Source: an uncultured Candidatus Saccharibacteria bacterium (lineage in GTDB: Bacteria; Patescibacteriota; Doudnabacteria; UBA920). From it: 64,000 bases of DNA. Position numbers and translations under genes: made by a program. The DNA lies in NCBI GenBank assembly GCA_964384035.1, contig CAYLIB010000007.1, forward strand, positions 18,769-82,768. The letters are read 5' to 3'. A model generated the notes under the pieces. The model searched no databases. It was not told the DNA's origin and saw only the letters and a program-made list of their open reading frames with translations. Below, one piece after another: positions 2,630-50,933 of this stretch (the first letter of the stretch is position 1; every line of letters starts with the position of its first letter).

Positions 2630-2911
2630 ATGCTTACTATAGAAGAAACTAAAAAAATAGCTGAATTGGCTCGGATAGAGCTTACGGAGGCTGAGTTGGT
2701 TAAGTTTTCGGGGGAACTATCTTCGGTTCTTGAATATGTTGAAGAGTTGAAGAAAGTGGATACTGAAGGAGTTGAGGTGCTCTCGACGGTTACTGGTCTA
2801 GAGAATGTGTCTAGAAAAGACGAAATAGAGAAATTAATTACTAGAGAAGTTTTATTTACTAATACTCCAGAGACAAAAGACGGACTAGTGAAGGTAAAGG
2901 CTATCTTGTAA
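2630..2911 (+). CDS. gatC: Asp-tRNA(Asn)/Glu-tRNA(Gln) amidotransferase subunit C
   Basis: 93 aa; LTxEExxKIAxLARIxLTEAE...ELSSVLEYVEEL pattern typical of GatC; immediately upstream of gatA and gatB. Confidence 0.85.
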   Translation: MLTIEETKKIAELARIELTEAELVKFSGELSSVLEYVEELKKVDTEGVEVLSTVTGLENVSRKDEIEKLITREVLFTNTPETKDGLVKVKAIL

Positions 2912-2916
2912 AAAAA

Positions 2917-3088
2917 ATGAAAAGGAAACACGGTTTTCCGATTAGAGCAGGGTCAGGCATAATCATCATCGGGCAAAGCCCGAGACTCCTAAGCCTGCTT
3001 CCTTCAAGAGTGCTTCTCGTGACTTCTCCTTTCCGCTGATTTTCCCCCGACACAGGGAACTTAGATTGGGGGAAGGCTAAGGCTTAAA
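2917..3088. repeat. Intergenic repeat element, copy B (homolog of 2259-2392), between gatC and gatA
   Basis: Same conserved blocks as copy A, with a different central insert containing the GGGCAAAGCCC hairpin. Confidence 0.5.
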
Positions 3089-4615: not shown

Positions 4616-6136
4616 ATGAACAATAATGAAGATTTAAATACATATAGAACAGTAGTTGGGTGTGAGATACATGTTCAGCTTAAGACTAAAACCAAAATGT
4701 TTAGTCCTGCTGCAAACAATCCTGATGAAAAAGAACCTAACACTAATATTGATGAAATTGTAACCGGTCAACCAGGAAGTCTTCCTGTTTTAAATGAGGA
4801 AGCGGTAAGGTTGGGTGTTGCTTTAGGTTTGGCTTTGAACTGTGAAATACCGGAATATTCTAAATTTGATAGGAAGCATTATTTTTATCCTGATTTACCT
4901 AAGGGTTATCAGATTTCTCAATTAGATGAACCTATTGCTAAGAATGGATGGGTAGAGATAGAAGTCGAGGGTAAGAAAAAACGCATTGGGATAACAAGGG
5001 CGCACTTAGAAGAAGATGCGGGAAAGAATGTTCATCCAGAAGGCTTACCTTATAGTTTGGTTGATTATAACAGAGCTGGAGCCCCGCTCCTCGAGATTGT
5101 TACTGAGCCTGATATTGAGTCTGCGTTGGAGGCTAGGATATTTTTGCAAGAGCTGCAAAATATTGTTAGGTATGTTGGTGCGGGAAGTGCAGATATGGAG
5201 AAGGGGACCATGCGATGTGAGCCAAATATTTCTGTGCGTAAACCAGGTGAAATTGAGCTACCTAAATACAAGGTTGAGGTAAAAAATATAAATTCTTTTA
5301 AGTTTGCGGAGGCAGCTATTAATTATGAGGTAAATAGGCATACAGATATACTTAAAGAAGGTGGTCAGCCGCGTCAGGTTACGATGGGTTGGAATGAAAA
5401 AGGTGGGTTTACTGTAGAACAAAGAAGTAAAGAAGAAGCAAATGACTATAGGTATTTTCCTGATCCCGATTTGCCAATTTTACATTTTTCGAGAGATTTT
5501 GTTGAAAATTTGAAAAATAATTTACCGGAATTACCAAACGCAAAAAGAGTTAGGTTTAAGAATGCATTTTCATTACCAGATGCTGATATTGATAATTTAA
5601 TTGCATGGAAAGATCTAAATGAATTTTTTGAAAATACAATTTCTGAACTTGAGCTTTGGGTAAAAGATGAAGGTTTGCTAGGCGAAGAAGTTATGAATAA
5701 ACTTACCAAGCAATGTGCTAACTGGTGCTTGCAGGATTTTTCTGCTCTTTTGAATGCAAAGCAAATGAATCCTTTTGATAGTAAGCTTACTCCGGAGAAT
5801 CTAGCTGAAATGGTTGTTTTGATCGAAAAAGGTAAGATTTCTAAATCTGCAGGAAAAGAAGTATTAAAAGTTATGTTTGAAAAAGGCGGAGAACCGGATT
5901 CTATTGTGATGGATTTAGGGCTTGTACAAACCAGTGATGAGGGTGAGATCTCGGTAGTGATAGATAAGGTTCTCGGAGAAAATCCTAAAGCAGTCGAAGA
6001 CTATTTATCAGGTCAGCAAAGGAGTTTTGGTTTTCTGGTAGGTCAAAGTATGAAGGCGTTGGCTGGAAAGGGTAATCCCGAGGTGGTAAATGGGATACTT
6101 CGAAAAAAATTGGATGATAAAAAGACCGCGAGTTAA
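4616..6136 (+). CDS. gatB: Asp/Glu-tRNA amidotransferase subunit B
   Basis: 506 aa; N-terminal VVGCEIHVQL...; Glu-rich motifs of the GatB/GatE family; follows gatA. Confidence 0.9.
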   Translation: MNNNEDLNTYRTVVGCEIHVQLKTKTKMFSPAANNPDEKEPNTNIDEIVTGQPGSLPVLNEEAVRLGVALGLALNCEIPEYSKFDRKHYFYPDLPKGYQISQLDEPIAKNGWVEIEVEGKKKRIGITRAHLEEDAGKNVHPEGLPYSLVDYNRAGAPLLEIVTEPDIESALEARIFLQELQNIVRYVGAGSADMEKGTMRCEPNISVRKPGEIELPKYKVEVKNINSFKFAEAAINYEVNRHTDILKEGGQPRQVTMGWNEKGGFTVEQRSKEEANDYRYFPDPDLPILHFSRDFVENLKNNLPELPNAKRVRFKNAFSLPDADIDNLIAWKDLNEFFENTISELELWVKDEGLLGEEVMNKLTKQCANWCLQDFSALLNAKQMNPFDSKLTPENLAEMVVLIEKGKISKSAGKEVLKVMFEKGGEPDSIVMDLGLVQTSDEGEISVVIDKVLGENPKAVEDYLSGQQRSFGFLVGQSMKALAGKGNPEVVNGILRKKLDDKKTAS

Positions 6137-11211: not shown

Positions 11212-11727
11212 TTACGCGTTTAGTGGGAATGGGTAAGATAGATCCGTAGAAGATGAGGTTAGATTTGTAACGTCTCTTTCTAGATCGGCTCTTCCCATTT
11301 TTAGGGCGACTCTGTTTTGTGGGTGCTCGATGCGTTGTCTCGACCCTTTTCTGCGGTTCAAGCTTAGGAAGTAATAGTTTTTTGTTGTAGAATCTTGTGT
11401 GTGTTTGATAAGGATTTCATCCACCGCAAAATTATCCACTACTCCGCTTTCTATAGCGAGTAAGAAATATACAGCCGCTATATTTTTTTTGAAATATATT
11501 TCCGGGTTGTTTTCACCACCGTGTTTTTCCTTAAAAAAAGGGTGGTTTTGAAAATATTCCGTAGCGAGGCTGTCTATGTTACGTAGTTTTTCTTCCAAAG
11601 AGAGTACGCTTTTAAGTGCGGATGCTCTTTGGAGATAGCCACAAAGTAAATCGTAGTTCAAAGCAATTTGGAAGTGATTTTGGATTTTTTTGATTACTTC
11701 CAAAGGAAGATCGGCGCAGTATGCCAT
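11212..11727 (-). CDS. Hypothetical protein (171 aa)
   Basis: ORF only; no motif recognised. Confidence 0.4.
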   Translation of the reverse strand: MAYCADLPLEVIKKIQNHFQIALNYDLLCGYLQRASALKSVLSLEEKLRNIDSLATEYFQNHPFFKEKHGGENNPEIYFKKNIAAVYFLLAIESGVVDNFAVDEILIKHTQDSTTKNYYFLSLNRRKGSRQRIEHPQNRVALKMGRADLERDVTNLTSSSTDLSYPFPLNA

Positions 11728-11969
11728 ATTCCCTCCTAGAGTTTTTGCAAAAGCGACAGGATTGTATATTTTGGTGTAATTTCGCTGATTTTTTTTGTGC
11801 GTCCTTTCACAGTAGGGAGCAGTCTTTATTCCAGGACCGGCATAGCCGGATTATTGCATAAACACTTCACTTTTTCCCAATCAATGACGCTTCAGGTCCG
11901 TACTTAAAAATCGACGAAACTACACACAAAATCTGCAATCCGTTGGAGTATGACGTTAGGAACGCATGC
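11728..11969. repeat. About 240-bp intergenic element, copy C1 of a family. Homologs are at 29013-29276 and 49445-49696.
   Basis: Shares ATTTTGGTRKAWTTT, TTCCAGG and the 52-nt core CTTCAxxxCCGxAGTACTTRAAAATCGACSAAxxxxxACAMAAATCTGCAATC with the other copies. Confidence 0.45.
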
Positions 11970-12968
11970 TTAGTCACGGTGTGAAATTTCGTCTTTGTTA
12001 TGGTGCCAGTGTAGGTGGGTTCTGTCAATGAAATTTAAAGCTTCCTCGGAAGTTTGGAACCAGTGGATTTCTTTGTTTCTTTTCCACCAGGTCATTTGTC
12101 GTTTGGCATAATGTAGGATATCCGTTGTTAGATTGTTCACGAATTTTTCATAATCAATTTTTTTTTGGAGGTATAGACTGCTATGTTTATATTCTAAGCC
12201 AAAATCTATCAACTTTTTCCAACTTAGCCCCTTATCGTGTAAATTTTGGACTTCATCCAGTAATCCTTCTTGTATTCTTGTTTCGAGTCTTTTTGAGATT
12301 TTATTTTTTAGGTCTTCGGGTTTTGGATTTAGTCCTATCCAGATATAGTTGCTTATTTTTGATTCGTCTCTTGTAGGGACAGGCTTCCCACTAGTAATTA
12401 CAATTTCTAAAGCCCTAATGAGTCTTCTTCTGTTGTGCTTGTCTATGGCATTTGTTCTGGCTGGGTCTAGTTTGGAAAGTTTTATTATTAAATTTTCGGT
12501 TGTTTCTATTTCTAAGGTTTTTCTTAGTTCTGGATTTGGGGGGACATCCGGAAAGTTTTGATCGTAAATAATAGCGTCCATCCAATGCATTGTACCACCA
12601 CAAAGTATAGGGATTTTACTTTGCTCTGCTATTTTATTGATTATTTTTTTAGCATAATTTTTGAATTCTGCTGCGGAGAATTGTTTTTGAGGGGATATTA
12701 GATTAATTCCGTAGTGTGGGATGTTTTTGTACATATATGATCTGGGTGGTTTGGATCCCCGCCTCTGTGGGGATGACACGCTATATTTAGTTTTAGTTAG
12801 AGGGGTTACTTTTCCTGAGCCAATGTCCATTCCTTTGTAAATTTGTCTTGAGTCTACGGAAAGAATCTCCCCGTCTAGTTTTTTCGCTAAGCTAACTGCT
12901 AGTTCGCTCTTACCACTAGCGGTTGGTCCTATGATAGCTAAGCCAATAAATTCTGGTTTTTTAATCAT
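11970..12968 (-). CDS. miaA: tRNA dimethylallyltransferase
   Basis: 332 aa; N-terminal P-loop IAIIGPTASGKSELAV...LSVDSRQIYKGMDIGSGK; extra internal insertion relative to typical MiaA. Confidence 0.85.
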   Translation of the reverse strand: MIKKPEFIGLAIIGPTASGKSELAVSLAKKLDGEILSVDSRQIYKGMDIGSGKVTPLTKTKYSVSSPQRRGSKPPRSYMYKNIPHYGINLISPQKQFSAAEFKNYAKKIINKIAEQSKIPILCGGTMHWMDAIIYDQNFPDVPPNPELRKTLEIETTENLIIKLSKLDPARTNAIDKHNRRRLIRALEIVITSGKPVPTRDESKISNYIWIGLNPKPEDLKNKISKRLETRIQEGLLDEVQNLHDKGLSWKKLIDFGLEYKHSSLYLQKKIDYEKFVNNLTTDILHYAKRQMTWWKRNKEIHWFQTSEEALNFIDRTHLHWHHNKDEISHRD

Positions 12969-15473: not shown

Positions 15474-15618
15474 TTTTGATGGAATTTGGGGTCTATCGAA
15501 GTCGGGGTCCTGCCACTGCGGTACTCCAAAAAGTCCTCGGCTGCACTGCGGGCTTTTTAGAGGCCTCCCCTCCGTGTCACCCCTCCCGGAGTTTCATTAA
15601 TAAATAAATAAGATTTTT

Positions 15619-24612: not shown

Positions 24613-24663
24613 CCTTATGGTTTATTTTTGGTATAGTTAGGTCATTATTTTTCAAAATTATAA

Positions 24664-25125
24664 ATGAGTAAAAAGTATCTATTGACCCATGAGGGTCTGG
24701 CTAAATTAAATGATGAATTGAAGTTTCTTATAAACGAGAAGCGAAAAGAAGTTATTGAAAGAATTAGAGAAGCAGCGGCTCATGGAGATTTATCCGAAAA
24801 TGCTGACTATGCGCAAGCAAGAGAGGAGCAATCGTTTATAGAAGGTAGGATCCAAGAGATTGAAGAGATGATTAAGAATGCTGAGATAATTACAGCTGCT
24901 ACTCAGCATAATACCGTAACGATCGGTTCTACTGTAACTGTAAAGGTAAACGATCAAAAAAGAACTTATAGTATTGTCGGAAGTAATGAAGCTAATCCAG
25001 GGGAAGGTAAAATTTCTAATGAGTCTTTGGTAGGCAAGTCTCTTTTAGGGAAAAAACTCGGCGATAAATTTACAGTTCAAGCACCAGCTGGTCCAATGGA
25101 ATATGAGATAGTCGAGATAGCTTAA
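24664..25125 (+). CDS. greA: Transcription elongation factor GreA
   Basis: 153 aa; GDLSENADY acidic finger motif; C-terminal FKBP-like domain. Confidence 0.85.
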   Translation: MSKKYLLTHEGLAKLNDELKFLINEKRKEVIERIREAAAHGDLSENADYAQAREEQSFIEGRIQEIEEMIKNAEIITAATQHNTVTIGSTVTVKVNDQKRTYSIVGSNEANPGEGKISNESLVGKSLLGKKLGDKFTVQAPAGPMEYEIVEIA

Positions 25126-25129
25126 ATAA

Positions 25130-25315
25130 AAAAAGATCTTTTGAGGTTGTCCCAAAATTTCATTTCAGTCAATTTTTAAAAATCCCGGCTATGAAGTTTC
25201 CAAAAAAAAATTCAACGATATCGCTGAATTTTTTTTTTGAAATCTTCTCGCCCGGAATTTTTTAAAAAATACCCCGAAAGCAAGTTTTGGGACAGCCTCT
25301 TTGGCGTCTTTTTTG
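25130..25315. repeat. 154-bp near-perfect palindrome (imperfect extension to about 185 bp) centred on GATATC at 25217-25222
   Basis: Left arm GGTTGTCCCAAAA...TTTAAAAATCCCGGC...GTTTCCAAAAAAAAATTCAACGATATCG mirrors right arm CGATATCGCTGAATTTTTTTTTTGAAATC...GCCCGGAATTTTTTAAAA...TTTTGGGACAGCC. Confidence 0.5.
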
Positions 25316-25335
25316 GTATAAAAAAATAGCGCTTG

Positions 25336-25620
25336 TCACGCTGGTATTTCTAACCTTGATTCTTCCTCTAATACTTTGTAACCAGAAAAACCTAGGTCGG
25401 ACATGCTTATGCAGCTACTAACTGGAAAGGTTAAGTTTTGACCTGCGGAGTCGCAAATAGTTACACAGCGTATATCCCAAGTAGGGGTACCGGTCACTGC
25501 GAGAATGCAGCCGTTGTTGGTAAGAATGAATGTCTTGGGGTATATGACTCTATCCAGTCGAGCTTTGGTAAAATTGTTGAGTCGTTCACATAACCAATTT
25601 TCATTGTTTCGATTTGACAT
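25336..25620 (-). CDS. Small Cys-containing hypothetical protein (94 aa), divergent from lysS
   Basis: ORF only; six Cys; no motif recognised. Confidence 0.3.
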   Translation of the reverse strand: MSNRNNENWLCERLNNFTKARLDRVIYPKTFILTNNGCILAVTGTPTWDIRCVTICDSAGQNLTFPVSSCISMSDLGFSGYKVLEEESRLEIPA

Positions 25621-25737
25621 GCGTTTTGCTCCTGAGTTTTGTCATGAAAAGATTTTAGATTATGTGATTTTTTTTGGGTTTTGTCAACTGGGATAGAAAC
25701 CTGTTAAAATGAATGGGTAATTTAATAAATTGGATGT

Positions 25738-27642
25738 ATGCAAGAACGACTTGAAGATATAATTCGAATAAGGAAAGATAAGATATTGGCTTTGGAAAAG
25801 CTCTCTATTGATGTTTATCCTTCGACAACTAACCGTACCCATAGTAATGCGGAAGTACTGGAGAAATTTTCAGACTTACAGGCTAGGGAATTGGTAATAG
25901 TGGGCAGGATAAGATCCTTTAGAGATATGGGAAAACTTATTTTTGTACACATCGATGACGGTACTGCTCGTGTGCAGGTATTGTTAAAAGATGAGCATGT
26001 TGGTGCTGAGAATTTGAAATTTTTTAAGAAACATTTTGATTTAGGAGATTTCGCGGAATTTGCAGGGACGTTATTTGAAACAAAGACAGGTGAGAAAACT
26101 TTGCAGGCTAAAGAATTTAAAATGCTTGCTAAAAGTATTTTACCGTTGCCAAGTGAGCATTTCGGGATAGAAGATACCGAACTAAAACTAAGAAAAAGGT
26201 ATCTGGATATTTTGTTAGATCCAGAGGTTAAGGAGATTTTTATTAAGAAAAACAAATTTTGGCAGGCTTTTAGAAATTTTTTGGAACAAAGAGGTTTTTT
26301 GGAAGTAGAAATGCCAATTTTAGAAGGTATACCTGGAGGCGCAGAAGCGGATCCGTTTATTACCCACCACAATGCACTTGATCGTGATTTTTATTTGCGA
26401 ATCTCACTAGAATTACCTTTGAAGAAAATGTTGGTGGCAGGGTATGAGAAAGTATTCGAAATTGGGAGGATTTTTAGAAATGAAGGTATCTCAACTGAAC
26501 ATTTGCAAGATTACACACAAATGGAGTTTTATTGGGCATATGGGGACTTTGAAGGGCTTCTGAAATTTTGGCAGGAAATGTATCAGTATGTAATAAAAGA
26601 GACTTTTGGGACATTGACTATAGCGTCTAGGGGGAAAACTGTGGACTGGAGTGGCGAGTGGCCAAGGGTTAGTTATGTGCAAGTATTTAAAGAGTATACA
26701 GGTTTAGATTTGCTTTCTTGTTCGGATGAGGACTTAAGGAATTATGCGGATTCAAATTCAATTGAGTATGAAGATTTTGCTCAAAGGGGTAGGCTAATAG
26801 ATGTAATTTTTAAAAAATTTAGAAAACAAATTCCTGGAGACAAGCCATTTTTCTTGATAGATCAACCTATTGAGCTAGAACCATTGGCTAAAAAAGATCC
26901 TAAGAATCCAAAGCTTGTTCAGAGGGCACAAGTAGTTGCTTATGGTACCGAATTGGGTAAAGGGTTTGGAGAGTTAAATGATCCAATAGATCAAAGACAG
27001 AGGTTTACTGAACAGGCTAAGTTAAGAGAAGCAGGTGATAGTGAAGCTCAAATGTTTGATGAAGGTTATGTGGAAGCCATGGAATATGGGATGCCGCCAG
27101 CCGCCGGATTTGGTGTAAGTGAAAGATTGTTTGCTTTGCTTATGGATAAATCTGTAAGAGAAACACAGATTTTTCCTCTGATGAAGGAAGAAGATTTAGG
27201 AAGAGTAGTGAAAAATGAGAAAGAAACACCTTTGGCTGTGGTAGTGGTTAATAATTCTTCTAAATTAGAAAAATGGCAAGAGTTAAATACAGTCGCGCAT
27301 CTAAATGCTGCTTATGGGGCAAGGATGGGTAAGAAATTGTTTTATTCCGAGTCTGCTCATTCTAAGGATGGCAAAGATGTAAAAATGAATACAAGTCATG
27401 CGATTATTATAAAGAGCGCTAATTCAGGAAGCGAGCTTGGTGAGCTTTTGGAAAAAGCAGTTGATTTAAATTTGCACACAGAGGTTTTTTCCAGAGAGAT
27501 GATTAATTCTAGTGATGATAAAAAAGTAATGAAGGAGATAGGTTCAAAAGAATTTAAAGATATTGAATTATTAGGAGTTTTGGTTTTTGGATCTAAGAAA
27601 AAAGTCTCAGAAATCACTTCTGGATTCTCATTATATTCTTAA
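25738..27642 (+). CDS. lysS: Lysyl-tRNA synthetase (class II) with a C-terminal extension of about 140 aa resembling the PTH2 peptidyl-tRNA hydrolase fold
   Basis: 634 aa versus about 500 typical; core FRNEGISTEHLQDYTQMEFYWAY and class II motif 3; the extension (AVVVVNN...NTVAHLNAAYG ... AIIIKSANSGSELGELLEKAVDLNLHTEVF ... LLGVLVFGS) matches Pth2 block order (VIAVR...AAQVAHAA ... VVVKVNSLEELLELYEKAKSLNLPVSLI ... ALGIGP). Confidence 0.85.
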   Translation: MQERLEDIIRIRKDKILALEKLSIDVYPSTTNRTHSNAEVLEKFSDLQARELVIVGRIRSFRDMGKLIFVHIDDGTARVQVLLKDEHVGAENLKFFKKHFDLGDFAEFAGTLFETKTGEKTLQAKEFKMLAKSILPLPSEHFGIEDTELKLRKRYLDILLDPEVKEIFIKKNKFWQAFRNFLEQRGFLEVEMPILEGIPGGAEADPFITHHNALDRDFYLRISLELPLKKMLVAGYEKVFEIGRIFRNEGISTEHLQDYTQMEFYWAYGDFEGLLKFWQEMYQYVIKETFGTLTIASRGKTVDWSGEWPRVSYVQVFKEYTGLDLLSCSDEDLRNYADSNSIEYEDFAQRGRLIDVIFKKFRKQIPGDKPFFLIDQPIELEPLAKKDPKNPKLVQRAQVVAYGTELGKGFGELNDPIDQRQRFTEQAKLREAGDSEAQMFDEGYVEAMEYGMPPAAGFGVSERLFALLMDKSVRETQIFPLMKEEDLGRVVKNEKETPLAVVVVNNSSKLEKWQELNTVAHLNAAYGARMGKKLFYSESAHSKDGKDVKMNTSHAIIIKSANSGSELGELLEKAVDLNLHTEVFSREMINSSDDKKVMKEIGSKEFKDIELLGVLVFGSKKKVSEITSGFSLYS

Positions 27643-27656
27643 TTATCTATAAAAAT

Positions 27657-29012
27657 ATGCTTGATATAAAATATATTCGCGAAAATGTTGAGAAGGTTAA
27701 GAAGGCAATCTTCGATAAAAGGGTGGATTTGAGTTTAGATGAATTATTAGATGTAGACTCTGAAAGAAGGACTTTGCTCGTGGAGGTCGAAGAATTAGCA
27801 GCAACAAAAAATAATGTCTCTAAAGAGCTACCTAAATTGTCTGAAGAGGAAAAGAAAGTAAAACTGCTTGAGATGAAAGAAGTCGATTTTAGGCAGAGCG
27901 AACTTAAAGAAAAACTTAGAACAATTACTGAAAGATATGATTATCTTATGTATTTGGTGCCGAATATTCCCGCTCCTGAAACCCCAGTTGGGAAAAGTGA
28001 TGCAGAGAATATTCCATGGAAATATTGGTCTCCTCCTCTTGGGGTGGTAGATCCTAAAGATATAGATAATGTTGCTAAAGTTCCTTCTGTTTATAGTTTT
28101 CCTGTGAAAGATCATGTAGAGTTGGGTAAGAACTTAGACATTATAGATACAGATGCAGGGGTAAGGACGTCTGGTTTTAGGGGTTACTATTTGAAGAATG
28201 AGGCTGTGTTGTTACAGCAGGCTTTGGTAAATTTGGCCTTGGAAAAGTTAAGAAATAGAGAATTTACATTAATGGTGCCTCCTGTTTTAGTGAGAGAGTC
28301 AGCATTGTTAGGTAGTGGGCATTTTCCTACGGGTAGGGATGAGATTTATCAAGTAGCAAGTAGTGGCTCTGTGAAAAATGGTAAGTTTTCTGAAGAGGAA
28401 CCTACTTTTTTAGCTGGGACTAGTGAGCCTAGTTTACTTGCTTATTATCAAGATCAGGTACTCGAAGAAAAGGATTTGCCTATTAAGCTTGCTGGTGTAT
28501 CTGCTTGTTTTAGAAGCGAGGTTGGTAGTTACGGTAAGGACACGAGGGGTATATATAGGATTCATGAATTTCAGAAGGTAGAGCAAGTTGTTATGTGTAA
28601 GGCAGATGTTAATGAAGCAGATCAATGGTTGGAAAATTTACGAGAGGTTGCCGAAGAGATTCTGCAAGACCTTAAGCTTCCTTATAGAGTAATACATGTA
28701 TGTACAGGGGATATGGGTGCTGGAAAGTATAAGATGTATGATATAGAGACTTGGATGCCTTCGAGGGCAAGTTACGGTGAAACTCATAGCGATAGTAGTT
28801 TAACTGACTGGCAAAGTAGACGTCTGGGTATTAGATATAAAGATGCTTCGGGAAAAATACGTTATGTTTATACTTTAAATAATACAGCTGTCGCAAGTCC
28901 TAGAATATTAATTCCTATTTTAGAGACGTATCAACAGCAAGATGGTAGTGTTATAGTTCCGGATGTGCTCAGAAAATGGACTGGTTTCGAAGTAATAAAA
29001 CCAAAAAATTAG
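27657..29012 (+). CDS. serS: Seryl-tRNA synthetase
   Basis: 451 aa; N-terminal coiled-coil tRNA-binding arm MLDIKYIRENVE...; class II catalytic core. Confidence 0.9.
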   Translation: MLDIKYIRENVEKVKKAIFDKRVDLSLDELLDVDSERRTLLVEVEELAATKNNVSKELPKLSEEEKKVKLLEMKEVDFRQSELKEKLRTITERYDYLMYLVPNIPAPETPVGKSDAENIPWKYWSPPLGVVDPKDIDNVAKVPSVYSFPVKDHVELGKNLDIIDTDAGVRTSGFRGYYLKNEAVLLQQALVNLALEKLRNREFTLMVPPVLVRESALLGSGHFPTGRDEIYQVASSGSVKNGKFSEEEPTFLAGTSEPSLLAYYQDQVLEEKDLPIKLAGVSACFRSEVGSYGKDTRGIYRIHEFQKVEQVVMCKADVNEADQWLENLREVAEEILQDLKLPYRVIHVCTGDMGAGKYKMYDIETWMPSRASYGETHSDSSLTDWQSRRLGIRYKDASGKIRYVYTLNNTAVASPRILIPILETYQQQDGSVIVPDVLRKWTGFEVIKPKN

Positions 29013-29276
29013 CGCGCAACTTTAGAACACGGGATCGCATAGTTTGGTACATTTTGGTAGATTTTATTCCCAGTAGCGAATTCCAGGTTGAGGAGTAGGC
29101 TCAGTCCGTCCTAAGCTTTGGAATGTTCCTTTTGCGACTATCCACCGTCCCAGTGCAGACGACCTTAGTAAGAACCGACAAAGTTAGATCTTTTCAAGAG
29201 TCCTTCATCCGCAGTACTTGAAAATCGACCAATTTGTACAAAAATCTGCAATCGATCATAAATAGTAAGAGATTAA
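29013..29276. repeat. About 240-bp intergenic element copy C2 (family with 11728-11969 and 49445-49696), directly upstream of the MurF-like gene
   Basis: Core CTTCATCCGCAGTACTTGAAAATCGACCAATTTGTACAAAAATCTGCAATCGA at 29204-29256 aligns with 11890-11942; further shared blocks upstream; contains sigma70-like TTGTAC-N17-CATAAAT. Confidence 0.45.
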
Positions 29277-30539
29277 ATGAAACAAATATTGCAATATTTA
29301 TTATCCTTCTTGGCTAAGAAGATAATATTAAAATACAAACCAATCGTTGTGGGTATTACCGGTAGTGTGGGCAAGACAAGCGCCAGGAAAGCAATTTCAC
29401 TGGTGCTCTCTTCTAGTATGAGTGTGCGATCTAGTAATAAGAATTACAATAATGAGTTAGGGCTGCCGTTAACAATAATTGGTGAAGATCCTAAAGGTAG
29501 AAATGTTTTTGGTTGGTTGTTTGTTTTACTCAAAGGAATATTTGTTTGGTTATATCCGATAGAGTTCCCTAAAGTTTTAGTTCTAGAGATGGGGATAGAT
29601 AAACCTGGGGATATGGATAATTTATTAGATATTGTTAAGCCCGATATAGGGATTATTACCAGTATTGCTGAGAATCATTATGCGCAATTTGAGAGTCCGA
29701 CTGGTATTGAAATCGAGAAGGGTAAGCTTGCTGAGGCTTTGTCTGACGAAGGTGTATTATTAGTTAATGCAGATAATTTGATAGCTAATAGACAGAGGAA
29801 TAAGACAAAAGCAAAGGTATACTCTTATGGTCGCGCTGTTTTGGCCGATATTAGGGTTTTGACAAGTAAGACTGTGCTTGAACCAGAAGTACATACGGAT
29901 ATTGTGTACGGGTTTGCTGATAAGGAATTTTCTTTACAAATACCTTCTATAGGCGAAGCTCATATATTAGCAACTAGTGCGGCTGCTGCTGTGGGGATGA
30001 TTTTTGGTATAAGCGTGTCTGCACTTCAGGAGAGTTTATTAGAGTACACGCCTGAAGTGGGTAGAATGAATCCTCTTCCGGGGAAAAATGGGTCTGTATT
30101 GCTGGATGATAGTTATAATGCTTCACCGGTTTCCGTTAGGGCTGCACTTGAATTGCTTTCTACTTTTTTACCAAGAAGAAGAATAGCTGTGCTAGGTGAT
30201 ATGCTAGAGTTGGGTAGTATTTCTGATGATAAACATAAAGAAATTGGGCATATGAATATCGGGGGAAATGTTGATTTGTTGGTAACCGTAGGTGAAAGGG
30301 CCAAGCTAATAGCACAAGGTGCTATGGAAAAAGGTTTTCCACAAGAAAGAGTTCGTGTCTATAGGGATATTTTTAGTGCTATTTATTTTCTCCAAGAGGA
30401 ATTGACTGCACAAGATATAATTTTAGTAAAGGGTTCACAGGGGATGAGAATGGAAAAGATTTCTAAGGAATTGTTATCTGACCAGGTAGTGGCTGATGAA
30501 GTTTTGTGTAGGCAGTATGGAAAGTGGTTAAATAACTAA
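29277..30539 (+). CDS. murF: Mur ligase family protein, MurF-like (UDP-MurNAc-peptide D-Ala-D-Ala ligase), lacking the usual N-terminal domain
   Basis: 420 aa; GITGSVGKTS P-loop at residue 28; C-terminal VLGDMLELG motif typical of MurF. Confidence 0.7.
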   Translation: MKQILQYLLSFLAKKIILKYKPIVVGITGSVGKTSARKAISLVLSSSMSVRSSNKNYNNELGLPLTIIGEDPKGRNVFGWLFVLLKGIFVWLYPIEFPKVLVLEMGIDKPGDMDNLLDIVKPDIGIITSIAENHYAQFESPTGIEIEKGKLAEALSDEGVLLVNADNLIANRQRNKTKAKVYSYGRAVLADIRVLTSKTVLEPEVHTDIVYGFADKEFSLQIPSIGEAHILATSAAAAVGMIFGISVSALQESLLEYTPEVGRMNPLPGKNGSVLLDDSYNASPVSVRAALELLSTFLPRRRIAVLGDMLELGSISDDKHKEIGHMNIGGNVDLLVTVGERAKLIAQGAMEKGFPQERVRVYRDIFSAIYFLQEELTAQDIILVKGSQGMRMEKISKELLSDQVVADEVLCRQYGKWLNN

Positions 30540-30550
30540 ATATTGGGGGT

Positions 30551-31678
30551 ATGAATTTACTTAAATCTAAAAATGTAAAAGATAATAAAGTTAGATACCA
30601 AACTCGTGAATTTACAGGGAAATTAGTTGAGGCAAGGAGTTATAAAAGAAAATCTAAGGCACTATCCGAAAATTCATTTTTTAGATTTTTACAAAAAATT
30701 GGACTATACGGTTCTTTGTTTATAGTTTTTATATTTATTCTCATTTTTTTCGTAATTTATGTATTATATTTTTCTTCTTTTTTTAAAGTTGAAAAAATTG
30801 AGGTAAATGGAGGTAATGATATAGAGAAAGAGCGATTAAGAGTAGAGGCGGAGAAATTTTTAGACAAAAGGGGTTATTTGGGGGTTCCTAGAAGTAATTT
30901 ATTAACGTTAGGTAAGGGGGATTTAAGGAAATCGCTCTTAGAGAATATTATAGAAGTTCGCAATAACCTTGAATTTAAAAAAAAGTTCCCAAATACTTTG
31001 GTTATTAATGCAGATTTTAGGAAATCCAAATTTATTATTGGCAATAAGTCTGGTACATATTTATATTTTGATGATTCGCAATATTATAAAAAATTATCTG
31101 AGAATCCAGCGAGTTTTTTTGACTATTCTGGATCTGAGATAAAAATTTGGTGGCAAGGGTTAGAGAATGAAGGTAGGCCAGAGGTGGATAATATAGTTTT
31201 TGAGAATGTATCCAAGATAAAGGATTTATACTTTCCTCCATCTGGTAATAGTTTTGATTTTTTGGTAATGGGGGTCGGCTCAAGGGATCAAGAAGAAGTG
31301 AATTCTGGATTGGATCCTAGGGTGATTTTAGTTAATGAGGATTTGGGTCCTGGAGAGGCAGTCGTGTATACGCGTTGGTTTGATTCTGATATAAATAAGA
31401 TTCCTGGCGGGTTTAAGGTTTATCTTGATACTAAAACTAGTCTGCCAGAGGTAATGGCTAGGGCAGAATTGGTTATAGATAAGCGACCACTCGACAAGCG
31501 AAAGCTGCTCTATTATATTGATATGCGATATGAGAATCGAGCTTTTTTGTGTGAAATGGGATCTGTTTGTGCTCAAGTAGAGGCACCAAAAGTGCCAAGT
31601 TTACCAGGTACAGAAATAAATGAAAATTTAGAGAGTATTCCCCCGCATCTCCAAACCAAAGTCAGGGGTGAAAATTAA
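30551..31678 (+). CDS. Membrane-anchored cell division protein candidate, FtsQ/DivIB-like (POTRA)
   Basis: 375 aa; single N-terminal TM; POTRA-like KVEKIEVNGGNDIEKERLRVEAEKFL...SNLLTL just after the TM; position after murF. Confidence 0.4.
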   Translation: MNLLKSKNVKDNKVRYQTREFTGKLVEARSYKRKSKALSENSFFRFLQKIGLYGSLFIVFIFILIFFVIYVLYFSSFFKVEKIEVNGGNDIEKERLRVEAEKFLDKRGYLGVPRSNLLTLGKGDLRKSLLENIIEVRNNLEFKKKFPNTLVINADFRKSKFIIGNKSGTYLYFDDSQYYKKLSENPASFFDYSGSEIKIWWQGLENEGRPEVDNIVFENVSKIKDLYFPPSGNSFDFLVMGVGSRDQEEVNSGLDPRVILVNEDLGPGEAVVYTRWFDSDINKIPGGFKVYLDTKTSLPEVMARAELVIDKRPLDKRKLLYYIDMRYENRAFLCEMGSVCAQVEAPKVPSLPGTEINENLESIPPHLQTKVRGEN

Positions 31679-46862: not shown

Positions 46863-46887
46863 GGTTAATTTTTTTTCAAAAAAATAT

Positions 46888-48019: not shown

Positions 48020-49444
48020 ATGTTGAGCAATGAATTATTTCTTTTGGTTGATCCTGTCGGTGCATCGCAGCAAGCTATTGATGCTTGGCAGGCATTTAAA
48101 AGTTTGCCGTGGCCACGGGTTGCTGTGCCTGCATCTGTGGTTATTGGTGGGCTTTCTGTTGCCGGTTATTCCTTGGTCCGGAAATTTGGACCTGGTTTTA
48201 TTAACTCGGTAAATAGGAAACAGCAAGAATTTGATTTGGAACATGAGTCGTTTTATTTTATATACGATGAAGTGTTCAGAAACAATCAAATGCTCGCGAA
48301 CCACTTGGTGAATGTGGCGCAGAGTAAGCGCGGTAAAGTTTATTCACCGAATTCGAATCCTGGTATTACGCCTAGCGGACGTCGCTATAAGACGCCGTAT
48401 GCGCCGAGTACCGAAACGACTTTCGTGGAATTCGACTTGGAAACAGGTAAAGAATTCTCGCTTACCAGATCGCAGTCCAACCCTGAATTTATTTCTTGGT
48501 TGGAGACCGAATACCCTGAAGTCTTTAATGTCGGTAAGGCTGATGAAGAGTTAGGGATGATGCGTCCTTATGATCTGTGCTTGTATCTTGGTTTCCCTGA
48601 GAAATCCAAGAGATTTGGTCGTAAGAAGGATCTGCCTACCGCGAAGAAAGTTATGACTGAGTTTCGCAAGGCTACTGGTTTTGCTACCGAGAAGAAGAAG
48701 CCTGTCCAGTTCACCCCAGTGCGCGTTACATTTCGCGCCTGGAAAGAATCCTTTGACGGCAACCAGACTCTGGTTGCGAGTGGCTCGCTTGAAAGCGACT
48801 TCGAGACTTTAAAGACTGCAAATCTCGTGTTTGCTAAAATGGCTCGTGAGATGATGCTCCTGATTGCCCGCAAGAACCGCGTCGAAACTAACCCTGAATT
48901 CCTGAGCAACCCCAAAAGTTGCTTCTACAAGTTCATTTCGGACGAGATCAAGTCCAAAGACAGAATCGAGAAACCTGAGGCCCAAACCTCAGATGGGCTA
49001 ACCCCAGATACAAATCCTTTGAAGGTTAATGATCGAGTTCATGATTACCTTAAGGAGAATGGAACTGTGAGTGACTATACGGCGGGTGCATATGTTATGC
49101 GGGAAGCAAGCGATGTCGATCCTTATCCTAGGGCCTGGTTTGCAGTAAACGATGCCTACCTTGACTACACCGAAGCAGACTTCCTGGAAGCTGCTATGGC
49201 ATACCACGCCGCTACTCGTGAGAGTGACCCACAAGTCCAGAACGATTTAGCTCTATGGCGTTCGTGGGTGCGTGACAGAAAGGCGTACCTGAAAACTGAG
49301 GATACTTACCGGATTACCAGAGATGAGCCAGCAACAAGCAGGATTTGGGCCAGTGTGAGGGAATACTGCGCGAGGAGTCCAATCCTTGGTTATTTCTTTC
49401 GCGATCTGAGTACGGCTGAAGGGGGTCGTGACCTGATCTCGTAA
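48020..49444 (+). CDS. Hypothetical protein (474 aa) with atypical composition (about 52-55% GC, CG-rich Arg codons), candidate horizontally acquired gene
   Basis: The ORF is preceded by GGAGG. Sampled 60-nt windows inside the gene gave 48-57% GC against about 35-43% in neighbouring genes. Arg is encoded by CGC/CGT/CGG here but mostly AGA elsewhere. Confidence 0.5.
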   Translation: MLSNELFLLVDPVGASQQAIDAWQAFKSLPWPRVAVPASVVIGGLSVAGYSLVRKFGPGFINSVNRKQQEFDLEHESFYFIYDEVFRNNQMLANHLVNVAQSKRGKVYSPNSNPGITPSGRRYKTPYAPSTETTFVEFDLETGKEFSLTRSQSNPEFISWLETEYPEVFNVGKADEELGMMRPYDLCLYLGFPEKSKRFGRKKDLPTAKKVMTEFRKATGFATEKKKPVQFTPVRVTFRAWKESFDGNQTLVASGSLESDFETLKTANLVFAKMAREMMLLIARKNRVETNPEFLSNPKSCFYKFISDEIKSKDRIEKPEAQTSDGLTPDTNPLKVNDRVHDYLKENGTVSDYTAGAYVMREASDVDPYPRAWFAVNDAYLDYTEADFLEAAMAYHAATRESDPQVQNDLALWRSWVRDRKAYLKTEDTYRITRDEPATSRIWASVREYCARSPILGYFFRDLSTAEGGRDLIS

Positions 49445-49696
49445 TCGACAATAAGAAAAAAATTGTGCTCAACATAAGTACACACACAATACTTTGGCTG
49501 CATGAACCCCACATGCAGCCTTTTCCTTTGGTTTTGTGTTTTGTGGCTATGGCATCGCACATTTTGCTCCAGCTCGCACGATTTTTTGGATTTTTTTACT
49601 CCATCGTCCCGTCACGGACGCTTGCGTAAAAAAATCGAAAAAGATCGTGCAATCTGAACCAAAATCTGCAATGCGTACTTTTTTCAGGAGAGATAA
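49445..49696. repeat. Intergenic element copy C3 (partial homolog of the approximately 240-bp family) upstream of adk
   Basis: CCATCGTCCCGTCACGGACG matches CCACCGTCCCAGTGCAGACG in C2; ATTTTGCTCCAG matches ATTTTATTCCCAG; AAAATCGAAAAAGATCGTGCAATCTGAACCAAAATCTGCAATGCG core; also the GGCTGCATG...CATGCAGCC hairpin. Confidence 0.4.
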
Positions 49697-50329
49697 GTGT
49701 TGCAAAAAATGGGGGGATGGCTTATTATCGGGGAGATGAAGTTTGATGTGATTTTTTTTATAGGACCTCAAGGGAGTGGGAAGGGGACGCAAGCTCGGCT
49801 GCTAGCCACGAAGCTTGGTTTTTATTTTTGGGAGATGGGTGGAATTCTGAGAGAGATTGGGAAAGAAGATTCCGTATTGGGTAAAAAGATAAAAGTGTTG
49901 CTTGATGCAGGTATTTTGGTTCCTGATCAAGTAATTTTAGAAATATTGGATGAGAAACTCCCAGGTTTAATGAATGAGAAAGGTTTGGTGTTCGATGGTG
50001 TACCTAGGCAGTTGGGACAGGCTGTGCATTTGTTGTCCTTTTTGGAGAAAAGCAATAAGCAGAAAATGGTGACTATCTTTATAGATTTACCTAAGGAAGA
50101 ATCAATCAAGAGATTGTTACTCAGAGCAGAGAAAGAAGGTCGTGTGGATGATAATAAAGAGAGTATAGAAATGCGGTTGTCTATGTATGAGAATCAAACG
50201 GTCCCGGTATTGGATTATCTGAGAGAGAGGACTACTTTTATTACGATTGACGGTTCGCCTGAAGTCGATATGGTTACTGAACAAATAAATTACGCACTTG
50301 AAGGAAGAGAAGACAAAGAATCCAATTAA
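49697..50329 (+). CDS. adk: Adenylate kinase (short form without zinc lid). The true start is probably MKFDVIFFIG near 49736.
   Basis: P-loop GPQGSGKGTQ; NMP-binding GxxLRE; LID region without Cys4. Confidence 0.8.
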   Translation: MLQKMGGWLIIGEMKFDVIFFIGPQGSGKGTQARLLATKLGFYFWEMGGILREIGKEDSVLGKKIKVLLDAGILVPDQVILEILDEKLPGLMNEKGLVFDGVPRQLGQAVHLLSFLEKSNKQKMVTIFIDLPKEESIKRLLLRAEKEGRVDDNKESIEMRLSMYENQTVPVLDYLRERTTFITIDGSPEVDMVTEQINYALEGREDKESN

Positions 50330-50933
50330 CATAATACTGATTGGTGATCCGGCAGCAGGAAAAGCTACTCAAGCTAGTTTTTTAACTAGAAAGTATGACC
50401 TGTATGATTTTGACATGGGCAAAGAGCTGACTGTTCTTAGGTCAAAAGATAAGCAGGTAGATGAGGTGTTAAAACAGAACACAGATAAGGGTAATTTGTC
50501 TCCTACTCAAATTGTAAGACAAATATTGAAAGATAAAATTAGTGAGTGCCCAAAGGAAAAGGGGATATTATTTGATGGCCATCCCAAAATGCTTGGTGAG
50601 GCTAAGCTTGTAAGTAAATTACTCAGAGAGCAAGGCAGAAGTAATCCCATAGTAATTTATTTGAGTATCCCTACCAAGGAAACTATAACCCGGATGCATA
50701 AAAGAGTTGGATATTTTGAAGGTAAGTTTGGGAAAAGAGCAGATGATTCTGTCGAGGCGTTGAAAAATAGAGTGGCATACTATAGGAAAAATGTCTCTCA
50801 GGTTATCGATTTTTTTAAACAACAGTACCAATATAAAAAGGTAAGTGGTTTAGGTAATAAGTCTGAAGTAAAGCTACGTATTTTTTTGACTATTGATAAA
50901 TATTTAGAGAAAGTTAAAAATACCTCTAAATAA
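50298..50933 (+). CDS. Second adenylate-kinase-family nucleoside monophosphate kinase (tandem paralog), TTG start
   Basis: P-loop GDPAAGKATQ; same domain order as adk; overlaps the upstream adk by about 30 nt. Confidence 0.6.
   Translation: MKEEKTKNPINIILIGDPAAGKATQASFLTRKYDLYDFDMGKELTVLRSKDKQVDEVLKQNTDKGNLSPTQIVRQILKDKISECPKEKGILFDGHPKMLGEAKLVSKLLREQGRSNPIVIYLSIPTKETITRMHKRVGYFEGKFGKRADDSVEALKNRVAYYRKNVSQVIDFFKQQYQYKKVSGLGNKSEVKLRIFLTIDKYLEKVKNTSK

Follow-up and report, generated by a model that had tools for sequence, protein, structure and literature searches.

The window analysed here, a stretch of DNA of 64,000 nt, is AT-rich (GC 0.38) and shows a positive, very strong GC skew throughout, up to 0.37. 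Both the genes it carries and their homologs assign it to the Patescibacteria (CPR), the named homologs coming from 'Patescibacteria group bacterium' and 'Candidatus Doudnabacteria' at ~45-67% identity, and near-identical contigs are present in JGI 3300006899, 3300005002 and 3300005039 as well as in several Logan runs. An earlier note on this DNA had singled out three intergenic spacers as copies of one repeat in the same orientation, placed beside miaA (11970-12968, minus strand), between serS (27657-29012) and a MurF-like Mur ligase gene (29277-30539), and upstream of adk (49697-50329). This gene context is as claimed, and the common orientation is borne out at all five sites now known, each copy lying on the G-rich strand (p about 0.06). 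A repeat family does connect the three spacers through a shared arm, but its build is different from the one proposed.

Copy C1 (11754-11946, plus strand, ~190 bp) lies between the stop codon of miaA (11970, minus) and the start of a 171-aa gene (11727, minus), and is inverted relative to the transcription of these flanking genes. It comprises a left arm (11754-11803), a non-homologous centre (11804-11895) and a right arm (11896-11946). An arm profile matches it at 11898-11945 (+) and 11754-11803 (-) with E 1e-10 to 2e-6, and self-comparison by BLASTN finds positions 11759-11793 of the left arm complementary to 11906-11941 of the right arm. Copy C2 (29029-29259, plus strand, ~230 bp) occupies the spacer that follows the serS stop (29012) and precedes the murF-like start (29277), with its left arm at 29029-29084, an expanded centre at 29085-29209 and its right arm at 29210-29259; the profile matches it at 29211-29257 (+) and 29029-29070 (-), and BLASTN finds it self-inverted in the same manner as C1. 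Copy C3 (49547-49679, plus strand, ~125-130 bp) is the minimal form, an almost uninterrupted hairpin whose arms (49552-49609 and 49616-49674) are separated by a loop of 6 nt and whose self-inverted BLASTN match extends over 125 nt at 80% identity (E 1e-20). It is located between adk and a canonical intrinsic terminator (49496-49520, plus strand; a 9-bp stem followed by a T run) that serves a 474-aa ORF upstream of it.

Two further copies were found outside the window sequence. C5 (~125 bp) occurs in a near relative (GCA_964434195.1, contig CAYSUI010000004.1, and Logan runs), whose MurF protein is 92% and whose DNA is ~83-86% identical. There it spans ~4788-4916 of locus L183 in the folD-greA spacer, upstream of the greA promoter, with profile matches at 4866-4914 (+) and 4788-4834 (-) (E 3e-9 to 6e-7). 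C6 follows the ftsW stop codon ~1.1 kb past the end of the window, both in the window strain and in the near relative, and carries a duplicated right arm, the second of which is partial. All copies sit in intergenic spacers, mostly ~20 nt after a stop codon, and four of the five lie between co-directional genes. The elements are short (125-230 bp), lack a credible ORF and, as had been noted, are richer in GC than their surroundings, if only slightly (0.41-0.44 vs 0.38).

The part common to C1, C2 and C3 is an arm of ~45 nt only. Within it, the 12-mer AAAATCTGCAAT has three exact matches in the window, all on the plus strand (11928, 29241 and 49661); with up to one mismatch there are five matches against 1.13 expected, a number that none of 100 shuffles reached. 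The near-match at 46886 (-) was rejected as an ordinary terminator hairpin and the one at 31007 because it lies inside a gene. A degenerate 33-nt pattern, ATTGCAGATTTTK-N12-13-CGATYTT, matches exactly the C1, C2 and C3 sites, with 0.00 matches expected. The spacers had been described as alignable over most of their length, which did not hold: BLASTN between them recovers shared cores of 41 nt (C1/C2) and 33 nt (C2/C3), and the MAFFT column identity across the three is 59%. Alignment against shuffled controls, which the earlier note had asked for, gives a divided answer. By Smith-Waterman against dinucleotide shuffles the full spacers are clearly related (z=12.2 for C1/C2, 6.4 for C2/C3 and 4.3 for C1/C3), whereas the centres alone remain at shuffle level (z=0.5, -0.7 and -0.1). 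Homology of the centres was therefore rejected, save for the 8-mer ATTCCAGG, their sole common word. The size of ~240 bp given for the repeat was also too large, the basic unit being ~125 bp. Finally, the GC-rich spacer at 15474-15618, thought to be a weaker fourth relative, has no match to the arm profile and no significant alignment, and is ruled out as a family member on both counts.

The right arm corresponds to what had been described as a 3' core (AAAATCG..N14..CAAAATCTGCAAT), and the left arm, which is an inverted copy of the right arm, to the 5' block (ATTTTGG..., ATTTTGGTRKAWTTT). Because ATTTTGGTRKAWTTT reads as the 3' core in reverse complement, each copy amounts to an inverted repeat, or long hairpin, and in C1, C2, C3, C5 and C6 the imperfect inverted arms measure 40-57 nt. 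C3, C5 and C6 represent the basic hairpin, while C1 and C2 are enlarged variants with unrelated central inserts. The unit runs from a left arm GACGGGATCGCATATTTTGG..CGATTTTC through a short GC-rich apex to a right arm GAAAATCG-N14-CAAAATCTGCAATCGAGC. Each arm holds two AAAATC-type boxes ~21 nt apart, arranged as direct repeats without an internal palindrome. When right arms and reverse-complemented left arms are placed in one register, the consensus reads GTAC..GAAAATCG-(3 variable)-AA-..T....C-CAAAAT-N-TG-N-AAT-C. The 14 arms from the five sites in two genomes share this one consensus, with AAAATCG and CAAAAT.TG.AAT nearly invariant at fixed spacing in 14 of 14. They are also the sole matches (E 1e-10 to 1e-6) of a 14-arm HMM run with nhmmer over ~215 kb of the window and its relatives' loci.

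Folding predicts a long closing stem in every copy. The RNA fold is most extreme for C3 (z of -6.4 on the plus and -9.1 on the minus strand), followed by C1 (-4.8 and -3.9), with C2 at -0.7 and -3.0. As DNA, C3 gives z of -5.6 (+) and -9.7 (-), C5 -3.1 (+) and -3.15 (-), and C6 -1.0 (+) and -4.1 (-).

The presence and completeness of the copies differ between close genomes. The loci available from the near relative (L183, L188, L197, L198, L199 and L203) reach from ~7 kb ahead of the window to 9 kb past its end, minus the window-equivalent of 14.6-19.3 kb, and all comparative evidence comes from this one relative, whose identity profile is mosaic. The C1 site is filled there (L197, L198) and 84.5% identical, vs ~83% genome-wide, the 12-mer reading AAAATATGTAAT; C1 thus diverges at the genome average rate, and its evolution is roughly neutral. 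At the C2 site, the window carries the full copy in a 264-bp spacer and the near relative (L183) has a spacer of 97 bp, in which the right arm is kept and ~167 bp, comprising the left arm and centre, are missing. In the window, the folD-greA spacer (51 bp, 24613-24663) has no copy, and its counterpart in L183 holds the full C5 between the folD stop and greA's promoter (TTGACT-17-TATAGT). Both the gain or loss of C5 and the C2 deletion are unpolarised in direction, there being no outgroup. The C3 site (L188, L199 and L203) and the C6 site are filled in both genomes at 99% and 98% identity, respectively. However, both copies lie within tracts of ~0.8-1 kb that are 94-100% identical, coding sequence included, in a mosaic background of 80-90%, and element-specific constraint at C3 and C6 was rejected on this ground. 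The next relative (ENA ERZ1758445) is already distant, with MurF 54% and GatA 80% identical, in a thinly sampled lineage; the HMM found no copies in ~27 kb of it (L196, L186) or in the 7 kb that precede the window (L192).

The two arms of a unit are not interchangeable. At the C of AAAATC*TG (column 34), a pyrimidine is found in 7 of 8 right arms and a purine, after reverse-complementing, in 6 of 6 left arms, so that two pyrimidines face each other in the stem as a conserved mismatch. The two ends differ in a constant way as well: the left terminus (as its reverse complement) is ..ATCCCGTC, the right one ..ATCGAGC. As the same asymmetries recur in all copies, the copies are homologous as whole oriented units, and for the same reason all of them would descend from one asymmetric master unit. 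Further, an arm is closer to its own partner than to arms elsewhere in the family: the complementarity of the true pairing is 0.70 against a mean of 0.59 for derangements, and is the best of 120 permutations (p about 1/120). Columns 16-17 covary as CG/CG, CC/CC, GC/GC, TG/TG and AA/AA in the five elements, and columns 23-24 behave similarly. Mismatches between the arms consist of 45 transversions, which make up 22% of arm positions, vs 17 wobble-compatible transitions; as the latter divide into 6 (+) and 11 (-), no transcribed strand is clearly favoured. The copies are old, with divergent sequences (65-79% between arms), and hence nothing points to a recent burst. The asymmetry and co-evolution of the arms, their uncompensated mismatches and the rate of C1 fit a DNA-level palindrome with maintained hairpin potential, which could be kept by selection on the element itself or by template-switch correction. 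The same pattern does not fit a tightly constrained RNA or operator.

Searches against known families, enzymes and signals returned little. Rfam gave no match in the whole window at the gathering threshold and none in the C6 region, and in E-value mode C3 drew only plant miRNA hairpin models at 21-36 bits vs thresholds of 83-180. BLASTN against plasmids and phages found nothing similar. In a genome contig collection, the loose pattern AAAATCG-N13-23-AAAATCTGCAAT occurred in at least 118 singletons from unrelated taxa, none of them related by BLASTN, and a tighter pattern found 58 and 2 singletons, again none related, in metagenome and viral collections, the former of which evidently lacks the source metagenomes. 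The flanks of the five copies were read directly, and at none of them is there a target-site duplication or a shared direct repeat; the sole candidate, a 2-bp GA at C5 that appears if the inverted repeat is extended, is at chance level. In either genome, the genes called over ~95 kb include no transposase domain or RAYT, nor did these loci yield a parent IS with the same ends. The literature likewise holds nothing relevant that we could find on MITEs or REPINs in Patescibacteria/CPR.

The copies are best explained as bacterial repeats of an ordinary, selfish or neutral kind. We put at roughly 60% the probability that they form a small, lineage-specific family of non-coding, non-autonomous imperfect palindromes of the MITE/REPIN/ERIC type. 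The earlier note had left three options, namely an sRNA, a cis-regulatory leader and a non-autonomous mobile element. The last of these is the best fit, given the turnover at ~83% identity, which includes presence and absence (by gain or loss), truncation to one arm, growth of the centre and duplication of an arm, together with the genome-average divergence of C1 and the absence of copies from the ~27 kb covered in the next relative. Such a family would probably spread by a function supplied in trans. We infer that a hairpin-recognising, single-strand route (HUH/Y1-type) is more likely than cut-and-paste transposition of the DDE kind, because target-site duplications are lacking, the hairpin is kept with compensatory changes in the arms and the orientation is uniform along a GC-skewed strand. 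Effects on neighbouring genes through an mRNA hairpin, stability or processing would, if any, be a by-product. Some observations speak against a mobile repeat. Target-site duplications are missing, as is a transposase or RAYT gene in the ~95 kb available from each genome. The copies are old, the single gain or loss (C5) is unpolarised, and five sites are all that is known from the loci scanned. Constraint could explain why C3 and C6 are so similar between the genomes, though both sit inside wider high-identity tracts, and a function could explain why the right arm persists upstream of murF where the rest is missing.

On the best-supported reading, the family appears to behave most like REPINs and ERIC elements. 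REPINs are REP doublets that form hairpins, in which conserved ends flank a variable spacer and compensatory changes are common (Bertels and Rainey 2011, PMC3116915). The present copies likewise have two inverted conserved ends around a variable spacer, a predicted hairpin and compensatory changes across it. They are extragenic as well, their presence differs between close strains, and no target-site duplications would be expected. Unlike REPINs, however, their arms have two direct AAAATC boxes in place of the short palindrome of the REP type, the ~95 kb per genome showed no RAYT gene, the density is ~1 copy per 15-20 kb as extrapolated from the loci scanned, and no described REP is similar in sequence. 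With the ERIC/IRU elements of Enterobacteriaceae the family shares an imperfect palindrome of ~125 bp, an intergenic position between co-directional genes, internal insertions that produce larger variants (here C1 and C2), deletions that produce smaller ones (the solo arm in L183), fairly divergent copies and the lack of a known transposase. The two nevertheless differ in host phylum, here Patescibacteria, and in sequence: distant-mode BLASTN of C3 against 5,426 complete E. coli genomes gave no match, and therefore there is no ERIC homology. Correia (NEMIS) elements and MITEs of the DDE type are similar in being short, non-coding and dispersed between genes, in having terminal inverted repeats, in their insertion polymorphism between strains (here the filled and empty folD-greA site, unpolarised) and in that they may affect neighbouring transcripts. 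They differ in that the family here has no TA or other target-site duplication, inverted repeats that are much longer (40-57 nt) and take up almost all of the minimal element, no outward promoter in the scan and, in the loci available, no parent IS whose ends match.

The long stems could instead be maintained by selection as structured RNA: as an sRNA family, or as cis-acting hairpins in the mRNA of operon spacers, where they would be RNase III or stability elements. The hairpins are stable far beyond shuffles, the arms covary within elements, four of the five sites lie soon after a stop codon between co-directional genes, and C3 and C6 are 98-99% conserved. Yet transversions outnumber wobble-compatible mismatches and there is no strand-specific G-U preference, C1 is inverted relative to the transcription around it, and the identity of C3 and C6 is common to their ~1 kb flanks. 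The hairpin is also dispensable, since L183 has only one arm of C2 and the window has no copy between folD and greA. No consistent promoter or terminator accompanies the copies: the intrinsic terminator scan called no element, and a T6 run is present only in C3, where it starts 4 nt past the stem. Together with the absence of an Rfam family, the generic plant miRNA hairpins being far below threshold, these points weaken both the sRNA and the leader option, and we regard a structured RNA as unlikely.

The near-invariance of the AAAATC boxes raises the question of whether the arms are read as DNA by a protein or as promoters by RNA polymerase. An operator or nucleoid-protein array would explain the phasing of the boxes at ~21 nt, with the palindrome reflecting a dimeric binder, and it accords with the fixed spacing in all 14 arms, with the lone right arm kept directly upstream of murF in L183 and with the ends of the C2 and C3 cores, which fall exactly 23 nt before the listed start codons. 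The last point is weakened by the adk start at 49697, which is doubtful because homologs are ~20 aa shorter. The distance to the start also varies, reaching ~77 nt at greA, whose promoter lies downstream of the element, and C1 faces the end of a gene. The neighbours (miaA, murF, adk, greA and ftsW) form no obvious regulon, and over 14 nt the C1 box differs at 3 positions between the close relatives; such an array appears quite improbable. A portable outward promoter in each arm (TCGACN-16/17-TGCAAT), which would drive downstream genes in the manner of Correia elements, is less likely still. All arms allow a weak -35/-10-like pair to be read at a shared position, and the terminator at 49496-49520 separates the upstream ORF from C3, which means that adk needs a promoter somewhere downstream of 49520. 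However, adk has an alternative in TTGCAA-17-TATTAT downstream of C3, and greA has its own promoter downstream of C5. The hexamer TGCAAT lacks an A at position 2 of the -10 element, and the hexamers are not conserved in orthologs, near-relative C1 having TGTAAT and TGCGAT. A sigma-70 scan (-35/-10 with 16-18 nt spacing) did not call the pair in any core and found no promoter common to the cores, its sole match inside one being TTGAAA-16-AAAAAT in C2. The suggestion that the core supplies a promoter, with TTGTAC-N17-CATAAAT proposed for C2, fares no better, as this site falls below the scan criteria and its -35 is not conserved in the L183 ortholog.

A more particular version of the hairpin-repeat reading, which we offer as speculative and of low probability, is that this is a Patescibacteria hairpin family mobilised as single strands without a recognisable enzyme of the RAYT/IS200 type, or else a domesticated derivative in which a host protein would read the pyrimidine-pyrimidine mismatch and the phased AAAATC boxes. 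On such an account the co-orientation of all five copies on a strongly G-rich strand would mean that orientation is locked to the direction of replication. If true, this would be a new partnership of repeat and enzyme in the phylum.

The reduced genomes of Patescibacteria are usually regarded as poor in mobile DNA. If the non-autonomous hairpin repeat holds as the explanation, a very small, streamlined genome of this phylum both carries and turns over hairpin repeats, which could serve as markers for strain typing. It would also explain the oversized spacers beside essential genes (serS-murF, 474-aa ORF-adk, miaA and ftsW). For annotators the family is a caution that repeat evidence alone is insufficient for sRNA or promoter calls in such spacers. 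The covarying arms and fixed orientation provide a modest test case for how palindromes are kept up, be it by selection, template-switch correction or an unknown enzyme. The family does not open a new class of system.

Several genes and spacers next to the copies have features of their own. The 171-aa minus-strand gene beside C1 has no Pfam match. The stretch at 11700-11756, which covers the start of this gene, its Shine-Dalgarno sequence and a 30-nt upstream region, is identical to the near relative in 57 of 57 positions (~83% genome-wide) and includes the perfect palindrome TTTTGCAAAA. The 474-aa ORF (48020-49444) likewise has no Pfam match and is conserved in the near relative, with a GC content of 0.456 in its 2-kb bin vs ~0.37. 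It is followed beyond C3 by two tandem genes with ADK domains that overlap slightly (49697-50329 and 50298-50933). As listed, the first has a GTG start and 210 aa, vs 190 aa in homologs. An alternative ATG at 49736 directly follows the promoter-like TTGCAA-17-TATTAT, and a leaderless start is a possibility. Across the window, comparison with L183, L188, L197, L199 and L203 finds tracts of 94-100% identity alternating with a background of 75-88%, a mosaic that suggests frequent recombination between two populations.

Other repeats and structured spacers also occur nearby. An intergenic direct-repeat pair, unrelated to the hairpin family, flanks gatC (2253-2385 and 2910-3075); its members share GGAAAACATGGTTTTCCGA and CAAGAGT..CTCC..TTTCCGCTGA..GACAC.GGAA and have no Rfam match at the gathering threshold. 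The gatC-gatA spacer (~210 bp), which carries the second copy of this pair, is absent in L197 and L196, where gatC abuts or overlaps gatA. Directly upstream of gatC, at 2465-2627, lies an imperfect palindrome of ~160 bp, whose arms read GCCGAATAT...ATATTCGGC. One stretch of it, CCAAAATGTGCAC, is similar to the arm motif of the hairpin family, but the profile search did not detect it (E 4.8). Adjoining C6, ~1.3 kb past the end of the window, is a GC-rich region of nested stems, GACGGGGAAAAGGGGTGA...TCACCCCTTTTCCCCCGTC (L201 7690-7790/L199 7625-7790), with no Rfam match at E<0.1; it has a 65-nt insertion in the near relative and looks like a structured RNA or another repeat. Downstream of greA, a palindrome of ~157 bp with 47-nt arms is present at 25143-25299. 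It falls within a 740-bp segment (25125-25865) that also has a 94-aa ORF, and in place of this whole segment the near relative has a 1.3-kb segment encoding a Peptidase_M50 protein.
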